This document shows, in pieces, positions 12,771 to 64,000 of a stretch of DNA of 64,000 nucleotides. The translations under genes were made by a program, and so were the position numbers. The notes beneath the pieces are model-generated. The model was not told the origin of the DNA, did no database searches, and saw only the letters and a program-made list of their open reading frames with translations. The stretch spans positions 69,709 to 133,708 of the forward strand of contig JADGDU010000013.1 in assembly GCA_016744705.1 (NCBI GenBank), written 5' to 3'. How positions within the stretch are numbered: position 1 is the stretch's first letter; every line of letters starts with the position of its first letter. The DNA is from Candidatus Krumholzibacteriia bacterium. Its GTDB lineage: Bacteria > Krumholzibacteriota > Krumholzibacteriia > LZORAL124-64-63.

Positions 12771-15700
12771 ATGAGAAACAGATTATTAGCCCAAATTTGC
12801 CTGGTTATTTTGGTTGCAGGGTTTACTGCAGCTGTACAGGCGGAACCGATTATTTCCGTAACTACTGATGCCGTTGGTCCCATCGGCTGTACAGATCCTG
12901 TCACGTATACTGTGAACTACGATCCGAACGGCTATGAAGCCGGTGGCGCTCCACTGGAGCTCTTTGGTTTCGATATTGTCATGGAGAATGATGATTTAGA
13001 TGTTGTTACATTTGAAGCTTCTGATGTGGCTAATATTGATTGGCCGGGACTCTTTCTCAATGTAGATGTTGGCGAGCAGGTCAAGGTCAGCGGTACTTTC
13101 CTGTCAGCAGAAAGAGTCACTGAAGCAACAGACTTGTTCTCCATAGTAGTGCATGGCAATAGTACTTCAGGAATTGGAGAACTAAATATTGTTGATGTAA
13201 CTCTGACTCGCGATGTTGGGCAATTAAATCCCCAAATTATTCCGGCGGAGCCTTGGGCGACTCCTATTGCTACCATCGCAGTTGATTGCACTCCCCCTGA
13301 TGCTCCGATCTTTTTTGCGGAACCTGAATTCACACCCGGAACCGTCAACACTGTTTATTGGAATGCACTTGTTGATGCAGCTGAGTACAATGTGGTTTGC
13401 AGCAATGGCGAGGTAAGTGGATGGCAGGCCGCTACGGAATTTACGTTTGGTAACCTGATGCATAACATCACGTACACCTACGAAGTTCAGGCAAGAGATG
13501 CCTTGGGAAATGAAGGGGTTTTCTCTGCTTCTGTGATCAGCACCCAGGATGCAGTAACGCCAGAATCTGCAGTGGGCGTATTGGATCCTGCCTACGGTAC
13601 TGTGTTATTCGATGTTCCCTGGACTGCCAGCGATGATATGAGCGGCGTGGCGTATGTCCAACTGCGGTACCGGTTAGTTGGCGGTGCCTGGGATGATTTC
13701 GAACTCACTCACACAGTTTCGCCCATCGCATTTGAGGCTGATTTGGGTGACGGTTTATATGAATTCTACACTATTGCCACAGACAATGCTGGGAATGTGG
13801 AAGTTGACCCTGAAATCGGCACGGTTCAGGTCAATGTAGATACAACTGAACCGATTGCCCCGACGATTATTGCCGAACCTGATTTCACTCCTGGTACGAC
13901 AAATACGATTTATTGGGATCCAGTCGAGGGAGCTACCCTGTACTTGGTCTCTTGCAGTAATGGTACCGATTCCGGCTGGATTGCGGGTCTGGAATGGACC
14001 TTCAGCGATTTAATTGACGGTACTACATACGAATATAGAGTGCGCGCCAAAGACGCTCTCGAAAATCTTGGCGATTTTTCAGATCCAGCTGAATCATCCA
14101 CTCAGGATGACTTAGCTCCGGATTCTGATATTGATGCTCCCGCACCAGGGAACATTGCAGTCCAGGCCTTCGATATTGAAGTGGTGCTTGATGACTTTGG
14201 TGGCAGCGGTGTAGTCCTGACCCGGTTGTTCTACAACATGGACGGAACAACCTGGATTCAATTTGGTGATGGGTTTCCCGGGTTAATTATTCCTTTCGTG
14301 GCACCCGATGATGGTGTGTTCGAATTCTACACCATCGCGGAAGATGCTGTGGGTAATGTGGAAGACGCTCCCGACGAACCTCTTCTCACTTTGACCGTCG
14401 ATACGTATGGGCCTATTGGTACTTTTGCTATTAATGACGGTGCTGAATATACCACAAGCTGTGATGTGATTCTAAATAACGACTACGATGACATCAATGA
14501 TGTTGTTTCCATGCGTTTCCGCGACCAACCTGTGGACCCAGAAGAAGTGTGGACAGAAGGATGGATCGCTTATGTGGACTCTTTCCTCTGGACTCTGGAT
14601 TGTGTTGGTGAGGATTACATCATCCAGGCACAATTTAAGGACGGAACAGATCAAATCACCAATGCGTCCGATTCTATCATCCTGGATAATACACCGCCTT
14701 CGGCTGTAACACTTCCCTGGAATGTTGGCCTGGTGTCTGGCAACAATTCCATAACCATCAATTGGATTGAAAATGAAGTTGACACCGATTTGGAGAAGGT
14801 GGAAATCTGGGCGGCTCTCTGGGATACTTTGGCCAACGATGTAGGAGTATCGGCTTACCCCGAATACGATGACATTTTCGGTGCACCCACTACGCCATCT
14901 CCAGTTTCATTGGATAGTCTGATGGTTGATCCTGACTATATTCTCCTGGCAGAAGTTCCTGCTGGAGAACTGACTTTCTTGCATGAAGCATCTGCTCGTG
15001 GAGCATATTTCTATTATCTCTTCGCAAAGGACCATGCTGGAAATTACAGCGCTCCTCAAACAACGTACCCCGCGCGTACGGTAAACTATATTTTGGGTGA
15101 TTTTGATGAAGACGGTGAAATCGGAATCATTACAGATGTCTCTCTTTTTGCCTCTGCCTACGGAACAAGAGAAGTAGCTGGCGTGCCGGAAGCTGGTTAC
15201 GACGGTGTGTATGATATCGGACTATACAACGACCCTTGGTTCCAACCGATCCCCGTGACTGATAATGAAATTGAATTCAACGATCTTATGGTTCTGGCAT
15301 CCAATTTCAATGCTCAATCTGGTGGGAAATCATCAACCGGGACCCCGGAAACACCCGTGTTGACCTGGTACCAGCTCGATGACCTGAACTGGGCCCTCGG
15401 TCTGGTAGAGCCTTGCAACAGCCTCAAAGGTCTTCGGGTTTCCCATTTGTTACCTGAAAATGCAACGATTGAATACAATCTGAGTCAGAATCTCAAAAGT
15501 ACGCCGACTTACTTCCTGGCCAACAACGAACGTAATGGTCTGGATCTAGGTTTTGCAGTACTCGGCAACAACTCGGTATTCCCGGGATCTGGTGAAATTC
15601 TGAAGGTTACAACCTCTGAACCCATGGACTTGACTAACGTCACCATCCAGGTTCGGGATGCCAACAACGAAAGCATCAAATTTGAACTGAAGTCTGAGCC

Positions 15701-15995
15701 TCTGGTGACTCTGCCCTCAGTTTACAGTTTGAATGCAAATTATCCCAACCCCTTCAATCCACAAACCACCATCAAGTTTGCACTGCCCGAAGCCCAGGAT
15801 GTGAGGTTGGAGATCTTCAACATCAAGGGCCAACGTGTGCGTGTGCTGATGAGTGAAAGCATGTCGGCCGGAGTCCACAGTGTGATTTGGAACGGCACCG
15901 ACGGTGGCGGAAGAACGGTAGCCTCGGGCACCTACTTCTACCGCCTCCAGGCTGGTCCCATGAATGAGACCCAACGGATGTTGCTGCTGAAATAG
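12771..15995 (+). CDS. secreted multidomain surface protein: cohesin-like N-terminal domain, FN3-type modules, dockerin-like segment, T9SS C-terminal sorting domain
   Basis: Signal peptide MRNRLLAQICLVILVAGFTAAVQA with a GGGAGG ribosome-binding site upstream. The N-terminal segment VTYTVNYDPNG...LELFGFDIV resembles a cohesin core. Two FN3-like modules (AEPEFTPGTVNTVYWN..., AEPDFTPGTTNTIYWD...YEYRVRAKDALEN). Dockerin-like GDFDEDGEIGIITDVSLFASAYG ... VTDNEIEFNDLMVLASNFN at about 15081-15310. CTD ...NYPNPFNPQTTIKF...GTYFYRLQAGPMNETQRMLLLK. Confidence 0.8.
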   Translation: MRNRLLAQICLVILVAGFTAAVQAEPIISVTTDAVGPIGCTDPVTYTVNYDPNGYEAGGAPLELFGFDIVMENDDLDVVTFEASDVANIDWPGLFLNVDVGEQVKVSGTFLSAERVTEATDLFSIVVHGNSTSGIGELNIVDVTLTRDVGQLNPQIIPAEPWATPIATIAVDCTPPDAPIFFAEPEFTPGTVNTVYWNALVDAAEYNVVCSNGEVSGWQAATEFTFGNLMHNITYTYEVQARDALGNEGVFSASVISTQDAVTPESAVGVLDPAYGTVLFDVPWTASDDMSGVAYVQLRYRLVGGAWDDFELTHTVSPIAFEADLGDGLYEFYTIATDNAGNVEVDPEIGTVQVNVDTTEPIAPTIIAEPDFTPGTTNTIYWDPVEGATLYLVSCSNGTDSGWIAGLEWTFSDLIDGTTYEYRVRAKDALENLGDFSDPAESSTQDDLAPDSDIDAPAPGNIAVQAFDIEVVLDDFGGSGVVLTRLFYNMDGTTWIQFGDGFPGLIIPFVAPDDGVFEFYTIAEDAVGNVEDAPDEPLLTLTVDTYGPIGTFAINDGAEYTTSCDVILNNDYDDINDVVSMRFRDQPVDPEEVWTEGWIAYVDSFLWTLDCVGEDYIIQAQFKDGTDQITNASDSIILDNTPPSAVTLPWNVGLVSGNNSITINWIENEVDTDLEKVEIWAALWDTLANDVGVSAYPEYDDIFGAPTTPSPVSLDSLMVDPDYILLAEVPAGELTFLHEASARGAYFYYLFAKDHAGNYSAPQTTYPARTVNYILGDFDEDGEIGIITDVSLFASAYGTREVAGVPEAGYDGVYDIGLYNDPWFQPIPVTDNEIEFNDLMVLASNFNAQSGGKSSTGTPETPVLTWYQLDDLNWALGLVEPCNSLKGLRVSHLLPENATIEYNLSQNLKSTPTYFLANNERNGLDLGFAVLGNNSVFPGSGEILKVTTSEPMDLTNVTIQVRDANNESIKFELKSEPLVTLPSVYSLNANYPNPFNPQTTIKFALPEAQDVRLEIFNIKGQRVRVLMSESMSAGVHSVIWNGTDGGGRTVASGTYFYRLQAGPMNETQRMLLLK

Positions 15996-16010
15996 GTTTT
16001 AAAACCTAAA

Positions 16011-16034
16011 GGGAGCCCGCTGCGGCGGGCTCCC
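16011..16034 (+). other. GC-rich 10-bp stem-loop (gggagcccgc-tgcg-gcgggctccc) in the 125-nt spacer between the two large surface-protein genes
   Basis: Perfect inverted repeat seen in the sequence. There is no U-tract on the + strand (an A-run follows), so it is more likely an attenuator or stabiliser element than a canonical terminator. Confidence 0.3.
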
Positions 16035-16147
16035 TAAAAAACAATGAAAATCGCCCTATTAGCAAAGGCATTGATCTGAGGGATATGTGCCTTTAAAGCC
16101 AAAAAAGGATTTTTGCGTTATTGACCATCATTGCGGGAGGTCGCCCC

Positions 16148-19100
16148 ATGAAAAATTTTACTATTCCCAAATCTTTGTTGATTGCCTTAATGGTGGTCTT
16201 TGTTGCGGGCGCTGCCAACGCCCAGGTTTCTCTGCGCTTTGAGCCCGAAAATTCCACCGTCGAGATGGGTGGTAGCCAGCGTGTAGGTGTTTGGCTTGAT
16301 GAAGCAATGGACGTGCGAACCATTGAATTAACGGTGTCATATGATACGGAATTTTTAGCAAGTATCGGCGGAGGGCCAGGTGCCGCTTATGACGCTTTGC
16401 CCGGCTCTCCACAAATATTTGAAGGATTTGATGACAGTACACCAGGTCAATGGACGGGATATGCTGTCGCCATAGGCGCCTCGGTTTACATTACCGGACC
16501 GGGCGAATTGTACTTCTGGGATATCGAGGGATTGGTCCCAGGAGTGGCAAACATTACTACGGTGTCAGTGGCATTGGCTGGTGCCGACGGTTTGGCCATT
16601 GCCGATGTTACTCTGGATGCTACCACCCTGGAAGTCCTGGCCCCATTTGATAGCCCTGCCTTCATTCCAGAACCGGAATTCACCCCCGGAACCACCAATA
16701 CAGTTTCCTGGAATGACGCCGGTGCCACCGAGTATCAGGTACAAATGGCCGACAGCCCAGCTTTCACAAGCATTGTAGCGGATACTGATTGGATCAGCGC
16801 AACCAGCTACGATTTTGCTGGTTTGACCAATGGGCAAACATATTATTACCGAATCAGAGCCCGATCCGATGCTCCGGTATACGAAGGCGAGTGGATGGCC
16901 GGAACCGTTTTCTCCACCCAGGATGATGGTCCGCCAAGCTCTCAAGCGGAGCCCTTGGACATCTATCAAACGAACTTCACTTTTCCGGTTCCCTGGACCG
17001 GCAGTGACGCCGTCAGCGGTCTCTCCAAAGTAGAGCTCTGGGTAGACGGTGGCAGTGGTTATTCACTGTATGAAACAAACACAGACCCTGACTCCGGAAC
17101 CCCCTTCTCTTATACCGCACCAATAGAAGGATCCTATAGTTTTTACACGATTGCCTATGATGATGTGGATAACGCGGAAGCCGCTCCTGAGGTTGCCGAC
17201 GCGTTAACAACGGTCGACGTCACCGCGCCCTCAGGCGATTTGTTGATCAATGTCGGGGCGACCTTGACCAACGATCAGGCGGTGACGTTGACTAATAGTA
17301 TTATTGATGCGACGCTGATGCGTTTCACCAATATTGAAAACGATTTTTCCGCGATGGAGTCACAATGGCAGACTTTCGGTGCCTCTCTGGCTTGGAACTT
17401 AACTGCCGGTGATGGAGAAAAAACCGTATATGCCGAGTATATCGATGTGGCTGGTAATATTTACCGCATCAGTGCGGACATTCTTCTCGACATGACCCCT
17501 CCTGCCGATTCCTTTGTCATTAACAATGGGAATCTAATGACCAACAGCCAAGCGGTGATGCTGACCAATGCCGGCAGCGACGCAGTAGAAATGCGTTTCA
17601 CCAACACCGACGGTGTCTGGCCGGGTTGGGCAACTTATGCAGCTACTATGGATTGGGAAATCCCCGCAGGGGAAGCAGAACATACTGTTTTTGCCCAATA
17701 CCGTGACGAAGCAGGGAATGTTTCTGATGAGAGCGCTGCTATCACTTTGGACACCATTGCTCCAGTGGCTTCATTTTTCATCAACGGTGATGATCCTTTG
17801 ACCAACGCCACCAGTGTTGTCCTGAACAATACCAGCACTGAAGCCGCCATGATGCAATTCAGCAATGATGGCGCCACCTGGTCCGGTTGGCTGACTTTTA
17901 CTGAAGCCCACGACTGGGTTCTCGCTGATGTTGAAGGGGCACACACTGTCTTCGGTGAGTTCCGGGACGAAGCAGGTAATATTACTGCCATTACGGATGA
18001 GATCACCCTCGACTCTATTGATCCTGTAGCCGGTTTCGTCATCAACGACGATGCCGCTGCCACCAACCTGACTGCTGTTACATTGACCAGCACCACCGTG
18101 GATGCCGTGTCGATGCAATTCAGTAATGATGGAATCACTTATTCCGGTTGGGTGCCCTTTGCCGAAACCTACTCGTGGGAATTGGTGATGGCCGATGGTG
18201 ACCACACTGTTTATGGCCAGTTCCAGGATCTGGCCGGTAATGTGCTGGATACTGAGGATGAAATTTCCCTCGATACCACTGCGCCCCTGGGTGTGATCGT
18301 TATTAACAATGGTGCGTCTCTGACTAATGATCCCGATATCACTCTGACCAACGCCATCACCGGTGCCACCACCATGCAATTCAGCAACGATGGCCTGACT
18401 TGGTCCGCGGTCCTGCCGTTCAGCGGCACACATGCCTGGTCGCTGCCCGATGTTGACGGCTCTCATACCGTTCTCGGGAAATTCTTTGATGCGGCGGGCA
18501 ACGAATATAATGCCGAGGATAGTATCACTCTCGATTCCAGTCCTCCTGATGGGAGCTTCGTTATTAACAACGATGAAGCCATCACCAATAGCCAGGATGT
18601 TGGCCTTACCAACTCGGTTTTTGGCGCGGTGGAAATGCGTTTCACAAACACCGAGGACTATTGGGACGGTGTGGGGTCGGAATGGCAATCCTACGCTGTG
18701 GCAATAGCTTGGACCCTGGAAGCGGGCGAAGGCAGCCACACAGTCTATGGCCAATACCGGGACACGGCTGGCAACATCATCGACGCCGAGGACGCCATCG
18801 TGCTGGACACTGTGGGGCCACCGGCAACCTTTGTGGTTAACAATGACGATGTTTATACCAACAGCACTCTGGTTTTGTTGACCAATACCAGCACCGAAGC
18901 TGAGCAGATGCGGTTCAGCAACGACGGAGTGACTTATTCAGGTTGGACCGCCTACCTGGAGAGTTACGACTGGACTCTGACCGACACCGAAGGTGAACGG
19001 ACTGTCTATGGTCAATTCATGGACATCGCCGGAAATATTACTCAAGACGATGATACCATCACCCTGGATACCGTGGAGCCGGTTGCCAGCTTTGTCATCA

Positions 19101-22100
19101 ACAACGACGAAGCTGTGACCGGTGATCTGGCTATCGTGCTGACAAACACCGCCACTGATGCGGCGGCCATGCAGTTCAGTAATGACGGCACCACCTATTC
19201 TGGTTGGGTGGACTATTCTGATACCCTGCCTTGGATCTTGGAAGCCGGTGAGGGTGATCATACTGTGTACGGTCAATTCCGGGATTTAGCCGGAAATGTG
19301 ACCGATGCGGACGACATCATCACCCTTGACCAAGCCGCTCCTGCGGGCAGCTTCGTCATCAATGACAATGATGCCTTTACCAATGACCTGAATGTTGTTT
19401 TAACCAATAGCATCACCGGTGCTACGGAAATGCAGTTCAGCAACGACGGGATTTCTTTCGCCAACTGGGTGGCCTACACGGCCACTTCTGATTGGGTTTT
19501 GACCACCGTCGATGGTGACAAAACGGTTTATGGAAATTTCCGGGATGCCGTAGGGAATGTTTTCCAAAGCACCGACTTGATCACCCTGGACACAGCCCCG
19601 CCGGCTGCCCTGTTCGTAATCAACGGCGATGATGTAACGACGGGAAATCCCAGTGTCAGTTTGACCAATACCAGCACTGAAGCTGTGCAAATGCAGTTCA
19701 GCAATGACGGCGTAACCTTCTCGAATTGGGTTGGCTACGACACATATTTCGCCTGGGATATCCCCAATGTTGATGGCGAGCACACGGTGTACGGAATATT
19801 CCGGGATGCCGCTGGTAATACTACCGAAGCCAGCGACATGATCACCCTGGATACAACCGCTCCCGATGCTGACTTTGTCATCAATGATGACGCAGTCTTC
19901 ACCAACAGCGAAAATGTTGTTCTGACCAACACAGTGGTTGGGGCGACAGAGATGCAGTTCCGCAATGAGACTGGTGCCTGGACCAACTGGATGCCGTTCT
20001 CGCCCACTCACAATTGGATTCTCTCCGCTGGTGATGGGGAAAAAACAGTGGGCGGAATATTCCGCGACAGCAGCGGCAATACAACCGAAGCCACTGATGA
20101 GATCATCCTCGACACCACCGAACCCGACGGCAGTTTCGTTGTCAACAACGACGAACAGTTCACCAACAGTGTGGATGTGGTGTTGACCAACAGCATGACT
20201 GGCGCCACGGAAATGCAGTTCCGCAATGCGGATGGCCAGTGGTCTGACTGGGTCGGTTATTCTGCAACCTTCGCTTGGGTTCTGGACGATGTGGAAGGCC
20301 TGCAAACCGTGAATGGGCAGTACCGGGATAATGCCGGAAATTCTACCTTCGTAAGCGACCAGATCACCTTGGACCGAGTGGTGCCTACGGCCGCCTTCGT
20401 CATCAATGATGATGATGTGTTCACCGGTGATCCCAATGTTGTACTCACCAATACCAGTGCTGATGCGGTACAAATGCAGTTCAGCAACGATGGCATCACG
20501 TTCTTTGATTTGGTTCCTTATGCTCAGACCCATGACTGGGTTCTTGGCGGTGGCGACGGACAGCACACCGTGTACGGTCAATTCTTTGACCAGGCCGGAA
20601 ACATGACTGCCACCACCGATGAGATCGTTCTGGATACAACAGCGCCAGACGTGCCTGTCTTGGCTGCAGAGCCGCTGTTCACCCAGGGTGAGGCCAATAC
20701 CTTAGTATGGAATGACCTGGGCGCAGAAGCCTACTACGTGGAAATGGCCACTGATGGATCCTTCGGGACCGTCTTGGCCAACTCCGATTGGATCTCGGCC
20801 ACCGAGTTCGCATTCTCGGGTCTGGATCATGGTCAGACCTATTTCTACAGGGTTAAGGCTCGGGATGATCTGGGTAATGAAACCGAATGGTCCGGTGTTG
20901 AAAGCTCCACTCAGGATGCCCTGGCACCAGTTTCATCGGCTGGCCCACTCGATACGTATCAAACCAATGCAACATTCGAAATTCCCTGGAGTGGCAGCGA
21001 CGAGACCAGCGGACTGGCCAGTGTTGAACTGTTTGTTGATGGCGGCAGCGGGTTCGTCTCCGCCGGCATCACAACGGAAATGGCTACACCAGTTCCTTTC
21101 TCTTACACCGCTTCTGGTGAAGGGATATACAGCTTCTATACCGTGGCCACGGATATTGCCGGTCTGGAGGAGGACGCACCTGGGGCAGGGGATGCTGTGA
21201 CCACGGTTGATTTTACTGCACCTGTGGGAACCATTGCCATCAACGATGGCGCGGATCTGACCAACGATCCCAATGTCGAACTCACTTTGGCAGTGACCGA
21301 TGCTGTTCAGATGCGGTTCCGCAATGCGGGAGACAGTTGGTCGGAACTGGAGGCCTACGCCAATACCCGAGCCTGGATTCTTCCATCAGTTGATGGCCTG
21401 GCCACGGTTGAAGCGGAATTCCTGGATGCGGCTGGCAACTTACTGGAAGCCAATGATGGCATCGAATTTGACATGACACCACCCGAAGGCACCCTGGCCA
21501 TCAACGGTGATGCGCCTGTGACCAATGATCCGGTTGTGGTACTGGACAACGGTATTACCGGGGCAACTCAGATGCGGTTCAGCAATGATGGTTCCAGCTG
21601 GCCTTCATGGCTTGATTATGCCGATACCCACGTCTGGACTCTGACACCAGGTGATGGACTGAAAACAGTTTATGGCCAGTATCGTGATCTGGCTGGCAAT
21701 GTGTTGGCCCTCAACGATCAAATTACGGTCGACACCACGGCTCCCGAAATGCCAGTGATGGTGGCGGAACCGGCATTCACTCAGGGTGAAAGCAACATCG
21801 TGGCCTGGAGTAATATCGGAGCCGATTCTTATTATGCGGAAATGGCTGATGATGAGCTGTTCACTAATGTCCTGACCCAATCGGATTGGATCCCAGGAAC
21901 AGAGTTCACTTTTGCCGGGCTCAGTGATGGCCAACGCTATTACTTCCGGGTGAAAGCGCGTGATGCTTTGTTTAACGAAACGGGTTGGTCAGGAGCAGTG
22001 TATTCTACTCAGGATGCTGGTGCCCCTGTTTCGGCCGCAGGTCCTTTGGATGCCTACCAAACCAACCTCACAGTTTCGGTACCCTGGACTGGCAGCGATG

Positions 22101-24421
22101 CCACCAGTGGTCTGGCCAGTGTGGAGCTCTTTGTCAATGATGGCGGCGGTTGGATCTCCGCGGGCGTCACAACAGATGTGGGCACACCAGAGCCCTTCAC
22201 CTTCACCGCACCAATTGAAGGCACATATAGTTTCTACACCCTGGCCACTGACGTGGTTGGTTTGATAGAGGCAGTCCCTGCCGAAGGCGATGCAACCACC
22301 ACAGTGGATGTGACCTTCCCAGCAGGGGCCCTGGCCATCAACGCCGGTGATGAAATGACCAATACGGTGGCTGTCGTCCTGACCAGCACCGTCACCGATG
22401 ACCTGGGTGTGACCTCCATGCGGTTCACCAATGTGGATGGCGACTGGCCCGAGTGGGTGCCATACGCGCTTAGTTTTGATTGGACTCTGACTGGTGGCGA
22501 TGGACTGAAAACAGTCTTCGCACAGTACCAGGATCCGGCCGGAAATGTTCTGGCCGTCCACGATCAAATCACCCTTGATACCACGCCTCCGGGCCTGCCT
22601 GCCTTCATTGCCGAGCCGGCGTTCACTGCTGGTCTCAGCAATACTTTGGAATGGGGCGATTCTGGTGCCACCAGTTACTTCCTGCAATCTGCGCTGGAAG
22701 AAGGCTTCGATACCATCGTCACCAACTCCGGTTGGGTCAGTAACCTGAATCATACATTCATTGAGTTGGATGATGGTCAAATCTATTACTACCGGATCAG
22801 AGGGCGCGATGCCCAGGAGAATGAGACAGCGTGGGCTTCTCCCACTTTCTCCACCCAGGATGCCACGGCTCCTGTGTCTCAGGTTGGCGTTTTGCCAGCG
22901 TTGCAAGGAGCCACCGAAATCACCGTGCCCTGGACTGGTGAAGACTCCGTCAGTGGTTTGTTACAAGTAGAACTGATGGTTGATGATGGAACCGGTTGGG
23001 TGTCTGCTGGAGTGACTACTGAAATCTCCACTCCCACCGATTTCGTCTTCACTGTCCCCGCCGGCGGTACTTACCAATTCTACACCATCGCCACAGATGT
23101 TGTGGGTAATGTTGAATTGGCACCATCCGAAGCGGACGCCACCACCGTGGTTGATTTCAGTGCCCCGGCTATGGCCACCAGCTTGGACGCGAGTCCGGGA
23201 GATCATGCCATCACCGTGAACTGGACTAACCCCGAGGATGAGGACTTGGCTCTCGTCGAGATTTGGTCCGCCATTTGGGCCACTGATGAAGGCCTTTCCG
23301 CTTATCCAGAATACGATGACATAGCTGCCGAACCGTTGCGCCCCAGCTCTCGGGCTGCTGCTCTGGCATCGGCTGAATGGCACCTTGTTGGGTCGGTGGA
23401 TCCCACTGCGACCATGTTCCTCCACAACGAAGGATTGGAAGAACGTGGTGTCTATTATTATGAAGTGTTCGCCCAGGATATGGCAGGCAATTTTGGCGCT
23501 CCGGCTTCCCAGGGAACCCGTGCCATCAATTACCTACTGGGTGATCAGAATGATGACTATGAAATCAATGTCATGGATATCACCAGCCTCGGTGTGACTT
23601 ATGGGTCGTTTGAAGGGGATGCCGCTTACAACAATGAAGTTGATGTGGGACCCACCGACGATCACTCCAGGACCGGTATTCCTCAAACAGATAACCGCAT
23701 CGACTTTGAGGATTTGACCATCATGGCCATGAATTATGGACTGAATAAATCGGCCATGGAAGTTTCAGGTTCGGAAACGCCTTACCTGACCTGGTACCAG
23801 GTTGATGAATATTCATGGACGCTGGCCTTGGTTGAGCCCTGTGCAACCTTGAAGGCATTGCACCTGGTCCACAGTTTACCTGAAGGTGTCTCCGTTACGG
23901 TGGAAGCGGGTTCAGCCCTGACCGAAAGCCTGCCTTACTTCCTGGCCAACATCGATGGTCATGGATTGGATGCAGGCTTTGCTGTGCTGGGCCAGAATGC
24001 GGTTCTTCCGGTGGATGGTGAAATTTTGAGAGTCACCACTTCAGATCCGGTGGACTTCAGTGGTGTGAGCATTCAGACCCGTGATGCAGACAACCAAAAA
24101 TTGGGATTTGATTTGTCCTCCGAGCCGTTGCAGGTGCTGCCTACAGCCTATCGGTTGGCCAATAATTACCCCAACCCATTCAACCCACAAACCACTATCG
24201 CATTTGATCTGCCTCAACCGCAGAACGTGCGCCTGGTGATTTATGATCTCAAGGGACGCCTGGTGAAGGAACTGATCAGTGAATCCATGGCAGCGGGAGC
24301 CCATAGCATCATTTGGAACGGTACCAACCGATCCGATGCCCGGGTGGCTTCCGGTGTGTATTTCTATCAGATCCAGGCAGGCCCCATGAGTGATACCAAA
24401 CGTATGTTGCTGGTCAAATAA
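16148..24421 (+). CDS. giant (about 2757 aa) repetitive surface protein: cohesin-like N-terminal domain, 4 FN3-type modules, 16 Ig-like repeats, dockerin-like segment, T9SS C-terminal sorting domain
   Basis: Signal peptide MKNFTIPKSLLIALMVVFVAGAANA with a GGGAGG ribosome-binding site. The N-terminal domain VSLRFEPENSTVEMGGSQRVGVWLD...ELTVSYDTEFL...GPGELYFWDIEG resembles cohesin. It is repeated in the next two genes. The FN3 modules read (AEP.FT.G..NT..W.......Y.....YYYR.RA.D..GNE..WS). The 16 Ig-like repeats are ~88 aa each, with consensus ..P...F.IN.....TN...V.LTN......MQFSNDG...S.W..Y.....W.L...DG.HTVYGQFRD.AGN......I.LDT. Dockerin-like GDQNDDYEINVMDITSLGVTYGS...TDNRIDFEDLTIMAMNYG at about 23524-23742. 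CTD NNYPNPFNPQTTIAF...GVYFYQIQAGPMSDTKRMLLVK. Confidence 0.85.
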   Translation: MKNFTIPKSLLIALMVVFVAGAANAQVSLRFEPENSTVEMGGSQRVGVWLDEAMDVRTIELTVSYDTEFLASIGGGPGAAYDALPGSPQIFEGFDDSTPGQWTGYAVAIGASVYITGPGELYFWDIEGLVPGVANITTVSVALAGADGLAIADVTLDATTLEVLAPFDSPAFIPEPEFTPGTTNTVSWNDAGATEYQVQMADSPAFTSIVADTDWISATSYDFAGLTNGQTYYYRIRARSDAPVYEGEWMAGTVFSTQDDGPPSSQAEPLDIYQTNFTFPVPWTGSDAVSGLSKVELWVDGGSGYSLYETNTDPDSGTPFSYTAPIEGSYSFYTIAYDDVDNAEAAPEVADALTTVDVTAPSGDLLINVGATLTNDQAVTLTNSIIDATLMRFTNIENDFSAMESQWQTFGASLAWNLTAGDGEKTVYAEYIDVAGNIYRISADILLDMTPPADSFVINNGNLMTNSQAVMLTNAGSDAVEMRFTNTDGVWPGWATYAATMDWEIPAGEAEHTVFAQYRDEAGNVSDESAAITLDTIAPVASFFINGDDPLTNATSVVLNNTSTEAAMMQFSNDGATWSGWLTFTEAHDWVLADVEGAHTVFGEFRDEAGNITAITDEITLDSIDPVAGFVINDDAAATNLTAVTLTSTTVDAVSMQFSNDGITYSGWVPFAETYSWELVMADGDHTVYGQFQDLAGNVLDTEDEISLDTTAPLGVIVINNGASLTNDPDITLTNAITGATTMQFSNDGLTWSAVLPFSGTHAWSLPDVDGSHTVLGKFFDAAGNEYNAEDSITLDSSPPDGSFVINNDEAITNSQDVGLTNSVFGAVEMRFTNTEDYWDGVGSEWQSYAVAIAWTLEAGEGSHTVYGQYRDTAGNIIDAEDAIVLDTVGPPATFVVNNDDVYTNSTLVLLTNTSTEAEQMRFSNDGVTYSGWTAYLESYDWTLTDTEGERTVYGQFMDIAGNITQDDDTITLDTVEPVASFVINNDEAVTGDLAIVLTNTATDAAAMQFSNDGTTYSGWVDYSDTLPWILEAGEGDHTVYGQFRDLAGNVTDADDIITLDQAAPAGSFVINDNDAFTNDLNVVLTNSITGATEMQFSNDGISFANWVAYTATSDWVLTTVDGDKTVYGNFRDAVGNVFQSTDLITLDTAPPAALFVINGDDVTTGNPSVSLTNTSTEAVQMQFSNDGVTFSNWVGYDTYFAWDIPNVDGEHTVYGIFRDAAGNTTEASDMITLDTTAPDADFVINDDAVFTNSENVVLTNTVVGATEMQFRNETGAWTNWMPFSPTHNWILSAGDGEKTVGGIFRDSSGNTTEATDEIILDTTEPDGSFVVNNDEQFTNSVDVVLTNSMTGATEMQFRNADGQWSDWVGYSATFAWVLDDVEGLQTVNGQYRDNAGNSTFVSDQITLDRVVPTAAFVINDDDVFTGDPNVVLTNTSADAVQMQFSNDGITFFDLVPYAQTHDWVLGGGDGQHTVYGQFFDQAGNMTATTDEIVLDTTAPDVPVLAAEPLFTQGEANTLVWNDLGAEAYYVEMATDGSFGTVLANSDWISATEFAFSGLDHGQTYFYRVKARDDLGNETEWSGVESSTQDALAPVSSAGPLDTYQTNATFEIPWSGSDETSGLASVELFVDGGSGFVSAGITTEMATPVPFSYTASGEGIYSFYTVATDIAGLEEDAPGAGDAVTTVDFTAPVGTIAINDGADLTNDPNVELTLAVTDAVQMRFRNAGDSWSELEAYANTRAWILPSVDGLATVEAEFLDAAGNLLEANDGIEFDMTPPEGTLAINGDAPVTNDPVVVLDNGITGATQMRFSNDGSSWPSWLDYADTHVWTLTPGDGLKTVYGQYRDLAGNVLALNDQITVDTTAPEMPVMVAEPAFTQGESNIVAWSNIGADSYYAEMADDELFTNVLTQSDWIPGTEFTFAGLSDGQRYYFRVKARDALFNETGWSGAVYSTQDAGAPVSAAGPLDAYQTNLTVSVPWTGSDATSGLASVELFVNDGGGWISAGVTTDVGTPEPFTFTAPIEGTYSFYTLATDVVGLIEAVPAEGDATTTVDVTFPAGALAINAGDEMTNTVAVVLTSTVTDDLGVTSMRFTNVDGDWPEWVPYALSFDWTLTGGDGLKTVFAQYQDPAGNVLAVHDQITLDTTPPGLPAFIAEPAFTAGLSNTLEWGDSGATSYFLQSALEEGFDTIVTNSGWVSNLNHTFIELDDGQIYYYRIRGRDAQENETAWASPTFSTQDATAPVSQVGVLPALQGATEITVPWTGEDSVSGLLQVELMVDDGTGWVSAGVTTEISTPTDFVFTVPAGGTYQFYTIATDVVGNVELAPSEADATTVVDFSAPAMATSLDASPGDHAITVNWTNPEDEDLALVEIWSAIWATDEGLSAYPEYDDIAAEPLRPSSRAAALASAEWHLVGSVDPTATMFLHNEGLEERGVYYYEVFAQDMAGNFGAPASQGTRAINYLLGDQNDDYEINVMDITSLGVTYGSFEGDAAYNNEVDVGPTDDHSRTGIPQTDNRIDFEDLTIMAMNYGLNKSAMEVSGSETPYLTWYQVDEYSWTLALVEPCATLKALHLVHSLPEGVSVTVEAGSALTESLPYFLANIDGHGLDAGFAVLGQNAVLPVDGEILRVTTSDPVDFSGVSIQTRDADNQKLGFDLSSEPLQVLPTAYRLANNYPNPFNPQTTIAFDLPQPQNVRLVIYDLKGRLVKELISESMAAGAHSIIWNGTNRSDARVASGVYFYQIQAGPMSDTKRMLLVK
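17219..20650 (+). repeat. tandem array of 13 diverged ~264-bp (88-aa) Ig-like coding repeats inside the giant gene; three further copies at about 21215-21745 and 22315-22585
   Basis: Periodic recurrence of the F(V/I)IN(D/N)... and LD(T/S)..P motifs at the protein level, with matching ~264-nt periodicity at the DNA level. The copies are diverged (not identical), so this is an old array rather than an assembly artefact. Confidence 0.8.
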
Positions 24422-24447: not shown

Positions 24448-25242
24448 ATGAGAACTGGAAAGAAACAAACGCTGATTGCAGTAGCCATTCTGTGGGGACT
24501 GCTTCAGGTTTCGGTGGCCAGTGCGGTGACCTTGCGGTTTTCGCCCCTGGATCAGAATATGGAGTTGGGAGAGCAAGGGACTGTGTCCATCATGTTGGAC
24601 GAGGTCCTGGAAGTACGAACCATCGAAGTCACCGTGACTTTTGACGGTAATATTATTTCAAGTCTGGAGGGCGGCGGTGGCGCTGCCTTCCAGGATCTTC
24701 CCTGCTATGTGTGGGAAGATTTTTCCGCCGATGAAAACCAGTGGACCGGCTTTGCTGTTTCCATGGGGTTTGATTGTTTTGTCGTCGGTCCAGGAGAGCT
24801 CTTCACCTGGAACTTTGAAGCCGTCGGATATGGGCCCAGCGACATTACGGCCATTTCTGTTGTCCTGTTGGATGCTGCAGGTGTGGAATATCCGGATGTT
24901 GAACTGGCAAATGGAACTGTATTGGTTGAGGGAGGAGAATCGGCGGTGGGCGATGGTTTGCCGTTTGCACAGCCTCGCATTACTGCTATGCCGAATCCCT
25001 TCAACCCGATGACCAATATCAAATTCTGGCTTCCGGAGGCCACTGACGCCCGGCTTTCCATCTACGACATGAGTGGCCGATGCGTCAGAAAACTCCTGGA
25101 TGGTCCAGTATCGTCAGAGTGGACTTCTGTGCGTTGGAATGGCCGTGGCGACCAGGGACGGGCTGCTCCCAGTGGAATTTACCTGTACCAGTTGGTGACG
25201 AAAAAGAAAACATTGTCTGGTCGTTTGACCTTGGCCAGATAA
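24448..25242 (+). CDS. small secreted protein: single cohesin-like domain plus T9SS C-terminal sorting domain
   Basis: Signal peptide MRTGKKQTLIAVAILWGLLQVSVASA with a GGAGG ribosome-binding site. The domain VTLRFSPLDQNMELGEQGTVSIML...EVTVTFDGNII...GPGELFTWNFE is collinear with the N-terminal domain of the giant protein. CTD MPNPFNPMTNIKFWLPEATDARLSIYDMSGRCVRKL...GIYLYQLVTKKKTLSGRLTLAR. Confidence 0.75.
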   Translation: MRTGKKQTLIAVAILWGLLQVSVASAVTLRFSPLDQNMELGEQGTVSIMLDEVLEVRTIEVTVTFDGNIISSLEGGGGAAFQDLPCYVWEDFSADENQWTGFAVSMGFDCFVVGPGELFTWNFEAVGYGPSDITAISVVLLDAAGVEYPDVELANGTVLVEGGESAVGDGLPFAQPRITAMPNPFNPMTNIKFWLPEATDARLSIYDMSGRCVRKLLDGPVSSEWTSVRWNGRGDQGRAAPSGIYLYQLVTKKKTLSGRLTLAR

Positions 25243-25306
25243 AAATGATACAATGGAGGTTGGCAGCACGGTAGTCGTTGCAAACCATAATGAGGGGATA
25301 ATTATT

Positions 25307-26266
25307 ATGATTCATTTCAATTCAGCGGCAAAAACTTTGAGTCTGGTGATCATGGGCACCGTCTTTTTGGCCGGGACGGCTTTGGGGGCCACTCTGGGCT
25401 TCACTCCCGACAACCCTGTTTTTGCAGGGGAGGATCTGCAAACCATCCAAGTGTTGGTTGAAGATGTGGAGGATTTACTGGGAGCGTCCCTGACCATTGA
25501 ATTTGATCCGGCCGTGGTTTCTCCGGTGGGAGTGAGTTTGGGCGGACTCATGGCTGATGGATCCTGTGGAGCTTTTTTCCAGTGGGTGAATGCCAGTGAT
25601 TTCACCAACACCATTGAATTGGATGCTGCCATGTTGGGTTGCACCGTCGGTGGCAGCGGTGTTCTTTTCGATATTACTTTTGAAGGGGTTGCAACGGGCA
25701 CCTCGGAATTGGTTGTTTTGGAAGAAGATCTGCGCGACAGCATCAATGATCCCATTGAATTCACATCCTCCAACGGCTCGCTGAGTTATGTTGCCGAGGT
25801 TACGGGGGATATCCGTTTCGAACCAGACAATGTTCTGTTTGAAGAAGACAGCACTTGTGAAATTTGTATAGACCTAGAAGGCGTCACAGATTTCATGGGG
25901 TTGTCAGTGGAATTTCAGTTTGATCCCAGCGTGATTTGGCCTCTGGCCGTTTTTTCCGGGGACACCCTGGACGATACCGGATGCCCTTATTTTCTGGACT
26001 GGATTAATACAGGCAGTGTAGTGGATACGGTGGAAATTGATCTGGCTCTTCTCGGGTGCAGCGCCGATGTGGACGGCCCCATGATTTGCCTGACCTTCCA
26101 GGGTGTGGCGTTCGGGGAAAGCCCCTTGACCTGGTTGGATGTTTTGGTGCGTGACAGTGAAAACAACAGCATTCTCGTCAATTGGCACGATGGAATGGTT
26201 TCTTATAACTCAGCTGTTGATGTGGTTCCCGTCAATTTTGGTGAATTGAAGTCAATTTACAGATAG
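25307..26266 (+). CDS. secreted protein with two tandem cohesin-like domains, no T9SS CTD
   Basis: Signal peptide MIHFNSAAKTLSLVIMGTVFLAGTALGA with a GAGGGG ribosome-binding site. There are two collinear ~140-aa domains (ATLGFTPDN...LTIEFDPAVVSP...GSGVLFDITFEG and GDIRFEPDN...LSVEFQFDPSVIWP...GPMICLTFQG). Both share the V.L.F.P ... E..YD...L ... G.G.L pattern with the upstream genes. Confidence 0.7.
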   Translation: MIHFNSAAKTLSLVIMGTVFLAGTALGATLGFTPDNPVFAGEDLQTIQVLVEDVEDLLGASLTIEFDPAVVSPVGVSLGGLMADGSCGAFFQWVNASDFTNTIELDAAMLGCTVGGSGVLFDITFEGVATGTSELVVLEEDLRDSINDPIEFTSSNGSLSYVAEVTGDIRFEPDNVLFEEDSTCEICIDLEGVTDFMGLSVEFQFDPSVIWPLAVFSGDTLDDTGCPYFLDWINTGSVVDTVEIDLALLGCSADVDGPMICLTFQGVAFGESPLTWLDVLVRDSENNSILVNWHDGMVSYNSAVDVVPVNFGELKSIYR

Positions 26267-26284
26267 GATACCAACATAAAAAAC

Positions 26285-26306
26285 GGGGCGCCTTTGCGGG
26301 CGCCCC
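26285..26306. terminator. bidirectional intrinsic terminator between convergent genes (ggggcgcc-tttgcg-ggcgcccc, with an A-run on the + strand meaning a T-run for the minus-strand gene)
   Basis: Perfect 8-bp GC stem. It is preceded by aaaaaac on the + strand, which is the U-tract for the PDZ gene transcribed leftwards. Confidence 0.55.
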
Positions 26307-26321
26307 GAGTATTCCTGAAGG

Positions 26322-27344
26322 CTATTTTTTCAATTCTTCCTTCATCTTTTTTAATTCTTTTTTCATGTTCTCAAGTTCCTGGCGCATCTCCTTCAAGTCT
26401 TCATCGTCATCATAAATGATCCGCATTTCATTCAGTCTTTCATTGTGCATCTTGGGGCTTTGGATGAAAAAATCATTGTCGCCGCCAATCATGCCCATAT
26501 GCTTGACCATTTGGCTTTCTGGAACTTCACCCAAAGTGATCTCCAGGCTTTTCTTCTTGCCTTTGCGGATCAGCTCAATGTCGAGTTTCTGACCCGGCTG
26601 GGTACCAGCGAGGGCCTCGTACACCTCTGCGGCCTCATCCACTTCATCGTCTCCAATGTTGATGATGACATCGCCTGCCTTCAATCCAGCCTGTTCCGCT
26701 GCACTGTTTTCCGTGACAGAAGTGATCAGGGCGCCTTCTCCGTCCTCCACATCCAGGAAATCACCCATTTGTTCACTGATGTCATCAACCTCAATACCCA
26801 TGAAGCCTCGTTCTTCATGCATGCCATCAAGGTCTTTGATCATGATTTCAAATTGCTTGTTATCACCGTGCTCGTTTCCTCGCCAGACGAAAACATTTTC
26901 GCCTCCATGGGAAGAATGAACACGGTCTTCATCACTGAAAAAGGACATGTGGGTTTCTTGGCGCTCACCCAGCTTGACTTTGAGTTTCTTTTTATTGCCA
27001 TCGCGTAATACGATAACTTCCACTTTTTCACCGGGAGCAGACTTGCTCACGGCTTTAGTGAGGGCTTTATGGTTAGCCAGGTCTTTGCCGTTGAATGAAA
27101 TGATGACGTCGCCGTCTTGCAGGCCGGCCTCGTGAGCGGGGCTGCCGTCGACAACTTCATTGACCAGAACGCCGTTTTCATCGTCCATATCCATGGCTTT
27201 GGCCATGCTGGTATTGATATCTTGCAGCATCACACCGAGATATGCGCCCTTTTCGCCGGCCTGAGCCAATCCGGCGGCCAGCATCATAAGGATGGCCATC
27301 AGGGTGGTTAGCGGCAGTGTTTTGGCTGTCTTGAGGGTAGACAT
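26322..27344 (-). CDS. periplasmic protein with two PDZ domains and a C-terminal K/E-rich coiled coil (no protease domain)
   Basis: Signal peptide MSTLKTAKTLPLTTLMAILMMLAAGLAQA. Two PDZ-like segments (GAYLGVML...VLVNEVVDGSPAHEAGLQDGDVIISFNG and ...ALITSVTENSAAEQAGLKAGDVIINIGD). Tail ...ELENMKKELKKMKEELKK. No trypsin-like catalytic triad was seen. Confidence 0.65.
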   Translation of the reverse strand: MSTLKTAKTLPLTTLMAILMMLAAGLAQAGEKGAYLGVMLQDINTSMAKAMDMDDENGVLVNEVVDGSPAHEAGLQDGDVIISFNGKDLANHKALTKAVSKSAPGEKVEVIVLRDGNKKKLKVKLGERQETHMSFFSDEDRVHSSHGGENVFVWRGNEHGDNKQFEIMIKDLDGMHEERGFMGIEVDDISEQMGDFLDVEDGEGALITSVTENSAAEQAGLKAGDVIINIGDDEVDEAAEVYEALAGTQPGQKLDIELIRKGKKKSLEITLGEVPESQMVKHMGMIGGDNDFFIQSPKMHNERLNEMRIIYDDDEDLKEMRQELENMKKELKKMKEELKK

Positions 27345-27680: not shown

Positions 27681-28076
27681 ATGAGCCTTACCTCGCCCAA
27701 GGCCCCATTTCTTTCACATTTGGCTATGCCATTGCTCTTAGGAGCATGGGTGGTTGTGCTGGCTGTTGCTGGCGCCTGGGCCGGTGAAAGTGCCTCAAGG
27801 GAAGATTTCCGCAAGGAACTGAACTTGGTTTATAACCACCCCAACCCCTTTAACCCGAGCACCACCATCAATTACGTCTTGCTGCAGCCTGCGGAGGTGA
27901 CGGTGGATGTGTTTGACCTTCGGGGGCGGCATATGGCCCGTTTGGTCGATTCTTATCAAGAGGAAGGTGAAAATTTTGCCGTCTGGAAAACCCTAACCGC
28001 CCCCTCCGGAACATACATCTTTCGCCTTGAGGCCGACGAAGTGCAGGTCTTCCGCAAAATGATGCTAGTGCGCTAA
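27681..28076 (+). CDS. mini T9SS substrate: signal peptide plus T9SS C-terminal sorting domain with almost no passenger
   Basis: 131 aa. Hydrophobic N-terminus (MPLLLGAWVVVLAVAGAWAG), about 15 residues of linker, then [19 protein letters not shown]...GTYIFRLEADEVQVFRKMMLVR. Confidence 0.6.
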   Translation: MSLTSPKAPFLSHLAMPLLLGAWVVVLAVAGAWAGESASREDFRKELNLVYNHPNPFNPSTTINYVLLQPAEVTVDVFDLRGRHMARLVDSYQEEGENFAVWKTLTAPSGTYIFRLEADEVQVFRKMMLVR

Positions 28077-28601: not shown

Positions 28602-28653
28602 TAATTCTGCACCTTTAATACTCCTAAATGTGCTATGATAACGGCATGAATGA

Positions 28654-28684
28654 ATCAGGATTGCATTAGGCGTCCTGATTTTGG
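28654..28684 (+). terminator. stem-loop plus U-tract after the hemerythrin gene (atcagga-N12-tcctgat-tttt)
   Basis: 7-bp stem followed by TTTT. It lies inside the 5' extension of the annotated ORF 28650, which supports the downstream start at 28722. Confidence 0.35.
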
Positions 28685-28721
28685 TGCCATTTCATATCAT
28701 TTCATTTTTGGGGAGATAATA

Positions 28722-63177: not shown

Positions 63178-63906
63178 TTAGCGATACAGGCTCTTTACGC
63201 CATCAAAAGACATTTCCTCAGTGCTGACTGCTCCCGTTTCGTGGTAAAGCGTCACGTTGTCAGAACCCATCTGGTACGGGTGGAAGTTGGCAAACATACC
63301 GAATCGAAGGGTACGAACTTCAAGGCGTCCAGCGTTGGTCATCATGTCTTGCCAGGTCATACCGTCAGGCAAAACATCCCACACTGCCCAATTTCCACCA
63401 CTCCAACCTTCAGGAAGCTCACCGGGGCCACCGACAAAGTCGCTCGGGATGTCCCACTGGTAGCTTTGCCAACCGGTACCGGCGCCGGGGGCAAAGTAGG
63501 TGTCAGGGTTAGAGTAGACGAAAACATCGTCAGTGATGTCACCAGGGGTGCCCATGTGGTTCATGATTGCGATGAACATCGGGTATTCGTGAAACCAGTT
63601 GTTTTGGGTCGCGACGGTCATGACGTCGATGGAGAAGCCAGTGACGCCCATGGCTGCAAAATCGCCACTCCAGCCGGAAGCATCCCAGTCGGTCCAGTAT
63701 GAAGGCGTGGGGACCCAGTGCTCAGGCCCAAAACCATAGGCATCTGGATTCCCGCCTTCAGAGACGATGAAATCCGCGCTACTCCAAGACCATCCGCCAT
63801 CAATCACTCCATCTTCAAAATCTTCTACGATTCCGGTTTGCGCTATGGCCATGGTGCTCATTGCCAAAACCAAGGCTAGTGTGATTACTGTCATTAACGT
63901 ACGCAT
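63178..63906 (-). CDS. hypothetical secreted protein
   Basis: Signal peptide MRTLMTVITLALVLAMSTMAIA with an AAGGAG ribosome-binding site 10 nt upstream. Trp/Gly/Asp-rich with no recognised motif. The ORF could extend to 63954 but the ribosome-binding site favours 63906. Confidence 0.5.
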   Translation of the reverse strand: MRTLMTVITLALVLAMSTMAIAQTGIVEDFEDGVIDGGWSWSSADFIVSEGGNPDAYGFGPEHWVPTPSYWTDWDASGWSGDFAAMGVTGFSIDVMTVATQNNWFHEYPMFIAIMNHMGTPGDITDDVFVYSNPDTYFAPGAGTGWQSYQWDIPSDFVGGPGELPEGWSGGNWAVWDVLPDGMTWQDMMTNAGRLEVRTLRFGMFANFHPYQMGSDNVTLYHETGAVSTEEMSFDGVKSLYR

Positions 63907-64000
63907 CGTTGTTTTCTCCTTGTTTGCTGATAAATATTGGGCTAACTGAGACATAGTATGACGGTTTTGGGAATGCGTGACTATTGGACTTTAGTCCAAT

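Follow-up and report, generated by a model that had tools for sequence, protein, structure and literature searches.

Cohesins are domains of ~140 aa with a nine-stranded β-sandwich (jelly-roll) fold, and dockerins (PF00404), to which they bind in a Ca-dependent manner and at high affinity, consist of two tandem segments of ~22 residues, each made up of an EF-hand-like Ca loop (D-x-[ND]-x-D...I...D) and a helix. To our knowledge, years of cataloguing such pairs outside cellulosomes have left almost all of them without an assigned function. Here we describe four genes, termed F, G, A and B, in a 64-kb stretch of contig JADGDU010000013.1 from a Candidatus Krumholzibacteriia bacterium (hereafter the window, at its full length of 64,000 nt). 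Krumholzibacteria are a diderm lineage, and their genomes encode many proteins with type IX secretion system (T9SS) sorting domains. The small genes A and B encode cohesin proteins and the giant genes F and G dockerin carriers; we lean, with modest confidence, towards reading F-G-A-B as a cassette, conserved and non-cellulosomal, for cohesin-dockerin assembly at the Krumholzibacteria cell envelope.

A and B resemble the anchoring and adaptor scaffoldins of cellulosomes in being small, non-catalytic proteins that consist of one cohesin or of two, whether or not a surface anchor is added. Their closest counterparts are OlpA and OlpC of C. thermocellum (3ul4, 4dh2), single cohesins with a cell-wall anchor, and ScaA of A. 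cellulolyticus, with the type II cohesin dyad 3l8q. The fold is the same, 3l8q being the best structural match of B and 3ul4 a profile match (E=1e-4). In contrast to those systems, the host is here a diderm and the anchor a T9SS C-terminal sorting domain (CTD), in place of SLH or sortase; it is two giant, non-enzymatic proteins of fibril-like build, and not glycoside hydrolases (GH), that carry the dockerins; and there is neither a carbohydrate-binding module (CBM) nor a multi-cohesin primary scaffoldin.

Non-cellulosomal cohesin and dockerin modules were surveyed by Peer et al. (2009, PMC3035643, as referred to in PMC8542988); those modules and the present ones share a place outside plant cell-wall degradation. 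To this group belong cohesin 2xdh from Archaeoglobus fulgidus and the GH84C cohesin of Clostridium perfringens (2w1n, 2jh2), of which 2xdh and 2w1n rank with the top structural matches of A and B. Unlike them, the modules described here form a conserved four-gene cassette tied to the T9SS, with a dockerin-cohesin-CTD tail and a separate C-terminal tag. A cellulosome-like complex has also been proposed in silico for the Cloacimonadota 'Ca. Stygibacter' (Williams et al. 2021, PMC8542988), likewise an FCB-group candidate phylum, with a T9SS-CTD cohesin protein that would display dockerin partners on the surface. That proposal involves one 3755-aa scaffoldin with many cohesins and CBMs, and dockerins on enzymes (GH18, GH57, S8, C25), whereas our window encodes tiny cohesin proteins and dockerin carriers that are giant, adhesin-like and equipped with their own CTDs.

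For the sorting domain, the described counterparts are the gingipains of P. gingivalis, T9SS type-A cargo anchored via anionic lipopolysaccharide (A-LPS) by PorU/PorZ (PMC8545088, PMC4804311). Like them, F, G and A finish in a domain whose score passes the TIGR04183 cutoff and which matches the CTDs of PorU and gingipains as well; unlike them, B has no sorting domain, and processing and anchoring of such cargo in Krumholzibacteria are putative. The distinguishing features here are the giant non-catalytic dockerin carriers, the dockerin-cohesin-CTD tail, a cohesin at the tip of G that is paralogous to A, the duo of a cohesin with a CTD and cohesins with a tag, and the tag, which is of separate interest as possibly a new element.

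Results

Genes A and B encode small cohesin proteins

Shine-Dalgarno motifs precede both small genes, GGAGG 8 nt 5' of the ATG at 24448 (A) and GAGGGG 9 nt 5' of the ATG at 25307 (B). Each N-terminus, read by eye, presents a basic n-region and a 14-residue hydrophobic core, followed by a cleavage motif (small-residue VASA/V in A, TALG/A in B), and the AlphaFold2 (AF2) models place a helix at the signal-peptide region of both proteins.

Residues ~27-162 of A were modelled as a cohesin fold (pLDDT 79.7), and B as two β-sandwiches, both of them cohesin folds (pLDDT 86.7). When compared with the Protein Data Bank (PDB) by Foldseek, A retrieved nearly exclusively cohesins as top matches (5nrm_A, 2xdh, 2vn5, 1g1k; TM(target) ~0.8), and B matched 3l8q, a type II cohesin dyad, best (E=5e-17). 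Overall, the two models fitted PDB cohesins with TM(target) of 0.75-0.81 and a root-mean-square deviation of 2.2-3 Å. Sequence comparisons pointed in the same direction: domain 1 of B matched Pfam Cohesin (PF00963, covering types I/II/III) at 27.3 bits (cutoff 24.1), and among PDB sequences the B family profile matched the cohesins 3l8q (E=4e-5) and, over the full domain, 3ul4 (E=1e-4). Neither domain 2 of B, 37% identical to domain 1, nor the cohesin of A had a direct Pfam match; hhalign aligned the latter with B at 98% probability (E=1e-13). As judged from the models, the domains of A and B are cohesins. A Cys pair is conserved in each cohesin of both families; together with the Sec signal peptides, discerned by eye on all four proteins of the cassette, these pairs fit an oxidising extracytoplasmic compartment.

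The C-termini of the two proteins differ. A low-confidence linker of ~14 aa joins the A cohesin to residues ~177-264, which scored 31.1 bits against TIGR04183, the ~80-aa T9SS type-A sorting domain (PF18962 in Pfam; cutoff 23), and 33 bits against FlgD_ig (cutoff 27); this CTD was present in 14/14 A homologues. It is 37% identical to the CTD of G, 45% to that of F and 40% to that of V45091. Derivation of A from G by deletion of the middle of the gene was considered and found unsupported, the CTD of A being no nearer to that of G than to other CTDs of the window. B gave no TIGR04183 match, and the CTD was missing from all 19 of its 19 homologues as well. The earlier note on this DNA had depicted A as a signal peptide, one cohesin-like domain and a T9SS CTD, and B as a signal peptide and two cohesin-like domains with no CTD; modelling, structural matching (3l8q for B) and the TIGR04183 results bear out both architectures.

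The cohesin type of B belongs to a very large family, with 7083 representatives at E<=1e-3 in an exhaustive profile search. This superset includes multi-cohesin proteins, some of them with T9SS CTDs, and a B-like double cohesin that carries a CTD (P0057). A locus search with a 7-sequence subset of B homologues returned 3 genome loci.

The giants F and G carry dockerins and further cohesins

F is built of a signal peptide, an N-domain without assignment, fn3/Ig modules, a dockerin (Doc), a module termed X and a CTD; G of a signal peptide, a cohesin, fn3 modules, Ig-like repeats, Doc, X and a CTD. The repeat of G, 87 aa long (FVINxDxxxTN...TVYGQFRDxAGN...ITLDTxxP), is present in ~16 copies, 13 of which form one tandem run at ~17200-20700 (G aa 365-1508 plus further copies), and the repeats are interspersed with an fn3-containing block that recurs several times along the protein. 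Neither giant has a catalytic Pfam domain, and their CTDs scored 38.9 (G) and 34.0 bits (F) against TIGR04183. Both are, as predicted from this build, very long, non-catalytic, fibril-like T9SS cargo.

The last ~330 residues of the giants constitute a shared block, 46% identical between F and G and 62-68% among G orthologues, within which Doc and X, separated by ~15 residues alone, are the most conserved part of these proteins. A profile of the first ~80 residues (n=7) had as its best match 2y3n_B, a Cel48 dockerin (E=2.9e-7; 72 positions, spanning both repeats), and 12 of its 13 PDB matches up to E=10 were dockerin-containing chains. Repeat 1 has the canonical form GDxNxDxxINVxDI. Between F and G the dockerins share 36% identity, each type being conserved among its own orthologues. 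These segments, called dockerin-like in the earlier note, are true dockerin homologues.

The ~130 residues that come next, module X, diverge more than any other cohesin of the set. Its sequence profile found nothing meaningful in the PDB, and Pfam did not recognise it. Once more diverse homologues were included, hhalign aligned X with the B family at 88.9% probability (E=2.4e-6, 105 columns), and a hidden Markov model (HMM) of the A and B cohesins matched the X equivalents of Eisenbacteria directly, with independent E-values from 6e-9 to 9e-10. X can therefore be taken as a divergent cohesin, so that both giants end in Doc-cohesin-CTD.

The mature N-terminus of G aligned with the A cohesin at 41% identity (E=7e-34), which makes A, by sequence, a minimal T9SS-addressed cohesin and a paralogue of the G tip cohesin. 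No such kinship was found for the N-domain of F, which was rejected as a cohesin (0.2% hhalign probability against the A family, no PDB sequence match). The window accordingly holds two dockerins (F, G) and six cohesins (the N-terminal one of G, that of A, B1, B2, X_F and X_G). The domain calls of the earlier note stand within this inventory, from which it had missed the N-terminal cohesin of G and the cohesin that follows each dockerin.

A cellulosome, a multi-enzyme complex whose catalytic subunits bear the dockerins, is ruled out: the dockerin HMM matched F and G only in the 64-kb window, with no match in the other four CTD proteins and so on no enzyme, and the window contains neither a CBM nor a multi-cohesin scaffoldin, its small proteins having at most two cohesins each. 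When run against 5.8 billion proteins, the Doc+X profile retrieved 10 proteins only, all fragments of the same kind.

Table 1. Features of the cassette and of other loci in the window
Feature	Position	Strand	Description or basis
Gene A	24448..25242	+	264-aa open reading frame (ORF)
Gene A signal peptide	24448-24525	+	n/h/c pattern, by-eye reading
Gene A cohesin	24526-24933	+	AF2 model and Foldseek
Gene A T9SS type-A CTD	24976-25239	+	TIGR04183, FlgD_ig
Gene B	25307..26266	+	319-aa ORF
Gene B signal peptide	25307-25387	+	by eye
Gene B cohesin 1	25388-25801	+	Pfam Cohesin, AF2/Foldseek
Gene B cohesin 2	25802-26206	+	AF2/Foldseek
Gene B conserved C-terminal tag, ...PVNFGELKSIYR	26207-26263	+	alignment of homologues
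Gene F	12771..15995	+	1074-aa T9SS cargo; Pfam fn3, Big_13, FlgD_ig, Por_Secre_tail
F dockerin	~15075-15326	+	dockerin HMM
F module X (divergent cohesin)	15345-15731	+	X HMM
F type-A CTD	~15732-15992	+	TIGR04183
Gene G	16148..24421	+	2757-aa T9SS cargo; GGGAGG Shine-Dalgarno at start
G N-terminal cohesin	16226-16639	+	41% identity to A cohesin
G dockerin	~23519-23764	+	profile against PDB dockerins
G module X (divergent cohesin)	23771-24157	+	cohesin profile comparison
G type-A CTD	~24161-24418	+	TIGR04183
All-GC hairpin between convergent B and PDZ gene	26284..26307	.	folding, flanking letters
GC-rich hairpin between F and G	16010..16035	.	sequence
Unrelated secreted protein with the same tag, ...STEEMSFDGVKSLYR	63178..63954	-	258 aa; signal peptide from internal Met
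ORF with little beyond signal peptide and T9SS CTD	27681-28076		131 aa; Por_Secre_tail E=2.7e-5
Triple lamin-tail-domain protein with CTD	28650-30803		FlgD_ig/Por_Secre_tail
S8 subtilase with CTD	39780-43472	-	FlgD_ig/Por_Secre_tail
β-helix/FG-GAP/ASPIC protein with CTD	45091-48603		FlgD_ig/Por_Secre_tail

The order giant-A-B is conserved

The gaps are 26 nt between G and A and 64 nt between A and B, and B stands in an apparent operon directly after the cargo genes. The order giant (Doc-X-CTD), A and B is kept in the window and in the related Candidatus Krumholzibacteriia loci L001, L002, L003, L004/L005 and L007, with varying downstream genes. Dockerin-bearing genes lie beside the small genes in all 7 of the 7 loci with enough upstream sequence (window, L001, L002, L003, L004, L005, L007); in L006/L008, an A-type CTD stands directly 5' of B at the contig end. 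L003 (6794-11815; GCA_942491155.1, the same metagenome-assembled genome, MAG, as L002) is a second giant-A-B cassette in which the reading frames of both the giant and B are broken, either by pseudogenisation or by an assembly error.

Beyond the class, a Ca. Eisenbacteria locus (L014) encodes three large Doc-cohesin-CTD proteins, then two small cohesin-CTD proteins and a tagged double cohesin. Similarly, an unclassified Joint Genome Institute metagenome contig (L015) encodes a 1164-aa Big_5 protein with Doc-X-CTD, then an A orthologue (A-family HMM E=4e-75) and a tagged single cohesin. The synteny with dockerin-like genes in related MAGs on which the earlier note had made its proposal depend is thus found in the seven loci and also in L014 and L015. 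Two conserved membrane-protein genes of ~300 aa, with hydrophobic stretches and no Pfam match, follow B in L002 (11019-12808), L004 (9409-11183) and L007 (10071-11899); they were ruled out as part of the core cassette, being absent from the window and L001.

A sigma-70-like promoter match (25225-25254; TTGACC-18-TACAAT, 10/12, extended TG) overlaps the end of A upstream of B. It may be an internal promoter, with the reservation that this consensus may not apply in this phylum.

B ends in a tag common to unrelated secreted proteins

In place of a CTD, B closes with ~17-20 residues of the consensus (C)..P-T-P-V-E-x-x-[TS]-W-G-x-[IV]-K-[AS]-L-Y-R-COOH, which AF2 predicts to be a short helix with many W, Y, K and R residues; a wider form of its end is ...[WF][GD]x[ILVM]K[SA][LIM][YF]R-COOH. 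Every B homologue has the terminus ...[FWL]-x-x-[LIVM]-K-[SA]-x-[YF]-R(D/N), in which the Lys is invariant. Among the best 147 of the 7083 representatives of the B cohesin family, 26 end in this tag, all of them small and built of a signal peptide and a single or double cohesin; a T9SS CTD is absent from all 26, and 18 other representatives bear a CTD of the PNPF type. The earlier note had B unanchored: the missing CTD is confirmed, and the picture is amended by a conserved C-terminal tag that unrelated secreted proteins share.

Such proteins occur both in the window (63178-63954) and in a relative, where L002 15847-16893(-) encodes an unrelated, tagged 348-aa signal-peptide protein with an orthologue in L004; the two align over the last 20 residues only (55% identity). 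A metagenome scan with the pattern W-G-x-[ILV]-K-[SA]-[LIM]-Y-R-stop recovered at least 120 loci (L016-L135), including several ~1-kb contigs with two tagged genes. Among the matches listed, residues beyond the pattern are conserved as well (T/S at -10 in 120/125, P at -15, T at -16, E at -13, Cys at -19/-20); 73 of 90 complete tagged ORFs have a signal-peptide-like start, with a median length of 235 aa; a single protein out of 128 is cohesin-like; and the sole recurrent neighbour class is that of FlgD_ig-type CTD proteins (30/120 loci). Tag-bearing proteins are widespread in soil and sediment metagenomes, as a wide variety of small signal-peptide proteins.

No NCBIfam model matched any tagged protein tested, B included, nor any of six searched at E up to 10, Pfam left the tail unmatched in the three tagged proteins scanned, string searches of the literature found no paper describing the tag, and no processing enzyme recurred among the neighbours of the at least 120 tagged loci. 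A descent of the B tail from a lost CTD ('...LKSIYR' likened to '...AYRL/ANNYPNPFNP') was dropped, since the tail is a self-standing tag on unrelated proteins. Its behaviour is that of a modular C-terminal tag for addressing or attachment, used in place of the CTD. As possible leads to its mechanism, its end may be likened to the basic-hydrophobic-basic end of CTDs (...KMLLVK) and the peptidoglycan-linking end of Lpp (...KYRK).

Hairpins and other CTD proteins of the window

The stem at 26284-26307 is perfect, with 9-10 consecutive G-C pairs, and lies 17 nt past the stop of B and 14 nt past that of a convergent PDZ gene; in a 64-nt context its folding energies were -25 and -27.5 kcal/mol (z -3.1 and -3.7). 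TTTTTT follows the stem on the minus strand only; on the plus strand it is preceded by A6 and followed by AGTATTCC. For the PDZ gene the hairpin is therefore a canonical terminator, whereas for B it lacks a tail, which bears out the hairpin that the earlier note had called a strong bidirectional terminator (26285-26306) and confines its T-tract to one strand. A strong hairpin of the same style, with an A-run and not a T-run after it on the coding strand, separates the co-oriented F and G (16010-16035), and tail-less GC hairpins may act at plus-strand gene ends in this organism. The PDZ gene (26322-27344, minus strand) encodes a secreted protein with two PDZ domains and a coiled-coil tail rich in K and E. 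Such domains recognise C-terminal peptides, but the gene is not conserved beside B in other genomes.

Seven proteins with FlgD_ig/Por_Secre_tail CTDs are encoded within 12735-48603, namely F, G, A and four others (Table 1), of which the 131-aa ORF could be a minimal cargo or a decoy.

Discussion

Ca-dependent cohesin-dockerin binding would link F, G, A and B into a surface network. After export by the T9SS, the C-termini of F, G and A would lie at the outer membrane, with the cohesin of A directly at the membrane and the dockerins of F and G one module above, so that A could clamp the bases of the giants in cis. The tip cohesin of G, ~100 nm out by our estimate from ~27 modules, could capture dockerins of other fibres or cells in trans, and the two non-identical cohesins of B could pair F-type with G-type dockerins. 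Where B would act hinges on its tag, the periplasm being one possible site.

As to this tag, we tentatively entertain, as a possibility short of probable, that it is a previously undescribed sorting or attachment signal of T9SS-bearing candidate phyla, alternative to the CTD, which would make A and B differently addressed receptors for the same giants. The CTD would then send A to the outer surface and the tag would send B to another envelope site or export route; the amphipathic W/Y/K/R helix predicted for the tag would fit an interfacial anchor.

Several observations weigh against an assembly cassette. The anchoring role of A is dispensable, and A is not needed as the sole surface receptor, because F and G carry their own T9SS CTDs. 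B, for its part, bears no recognised outer-membrane export signal, and an extracellular cross-linking role would require a further export route, since a Sec-only protein without a CTD stays periplasmic by default in a diderm. The adjacent Doc and X could bind each other within one molecule, leaving nothing for A and B. The dockerins themselves depart from the norm: repeat 2 keeps the D...D..I...D Ca-ligand positions and the helix, and has a 10-12-aa insertion inside the loop when compared with 2y3n_B, and the Pfam Dockerin_1 threshold was not reached (best E=0.05, in 2/7 members). Regarding gene order, the sole exception to synteny is a Krumholzibacteriia MAG in which a lone partial B-like ORF with the second cohesin and the tag (L009, 7383-7958) has neither A nor a dockerin-bearing giant within ±7 kb. 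Finally, the T9SS machinery consists of SprA/Sov, PorK/L/M/N and PorU/V, and no gene for it was found among the window ORFs scanned; a T9SS is nonetheless likely in this organism because seven CTD-bearing proteins are encoded in 64 kb.

Another explanation, which we judge unlikely, places B in the periplasm. B could be a periplasmic capping chaperone or holdase whose two cohesins mask the F and G dockerins against premature polymerisation, given that G combines a cohesin with a dockerin and that T9SS cargo fold before export; B would be stripped at the translocon or exported with the cargo, and the tag would hold it at the membrane or peptidoglycan. The Sec signal, the consistent lack of a CTD in the 19 homologues and the position of B directly after the cargo genes of the apparent operon all agree with this proposal, as do the two distinct, separately conserved B cohesins, which match in number the two dockerin subtypes, and a tag helix with the predicted make-up of an interfacial anchor. 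However, the CTD on the B-like double cohesin P0057 suggests action outside the cell, and we know of no precedent for periplasmic cohesin-dockerin chaperoning.

Self-binding of the giants, noted above as an objection, can be extended into a full alternative that we regard as distinctly improbable: the dockerin would bind its own X, as an intramolecular clasp or in a daisy chain of neighbours, and A and B would bind a glycan or another protein, or act as competitors or caps. The cohesin fold does resemble carbohydrate-binding β-sandwiches, Doc and X are near neighbours in the most conserved block, and the Doc-X-CTD cassette recurs in Eisenbacteria. Yet such a clasp accounts neither for the strictly kept gene order of giants, A and B nor for the paralogy between A and the G tip cohesin, and it would engage the most divergent cohesin, the one unrecognised by Pfam. 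The arrangement put forward in the earlier note, with A as a dedicated surface receptor holding F and G and B as a freely secreted bivalent cross-linker, is in keeping with the cohesin-CTD and double-cohesin architectures and with the release of cargo that T9SS CTD cleavage can bring about (the cleavage and the A-LPS step being described in PMC8545088), after which a released F or G would expose Doc-X at its new C-terminus, but is very improbable given that F and G bear the same kind of CTD as A, that no route is known by which B could cross the outer membrane, and that the conserved tag of B looks like an address signal.

Under the assembly cassette that we favour, the geometry suggests self-assembly of ~100-nm surface fibres, tip-to-base or base-to-base, and not enzyme display. 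The tag, if a true sorting or anchoring signal, would mark out a new envelope-protein class in phyla about which little is known. For cohesin-dockerin pairs outside cellulosomes, the locus offers a compact cassette conserved across phyla, in which the candidate partners are obvious from gene order, and its six cohesin modules facing two dockerins make a concrete and cheaply testable case.

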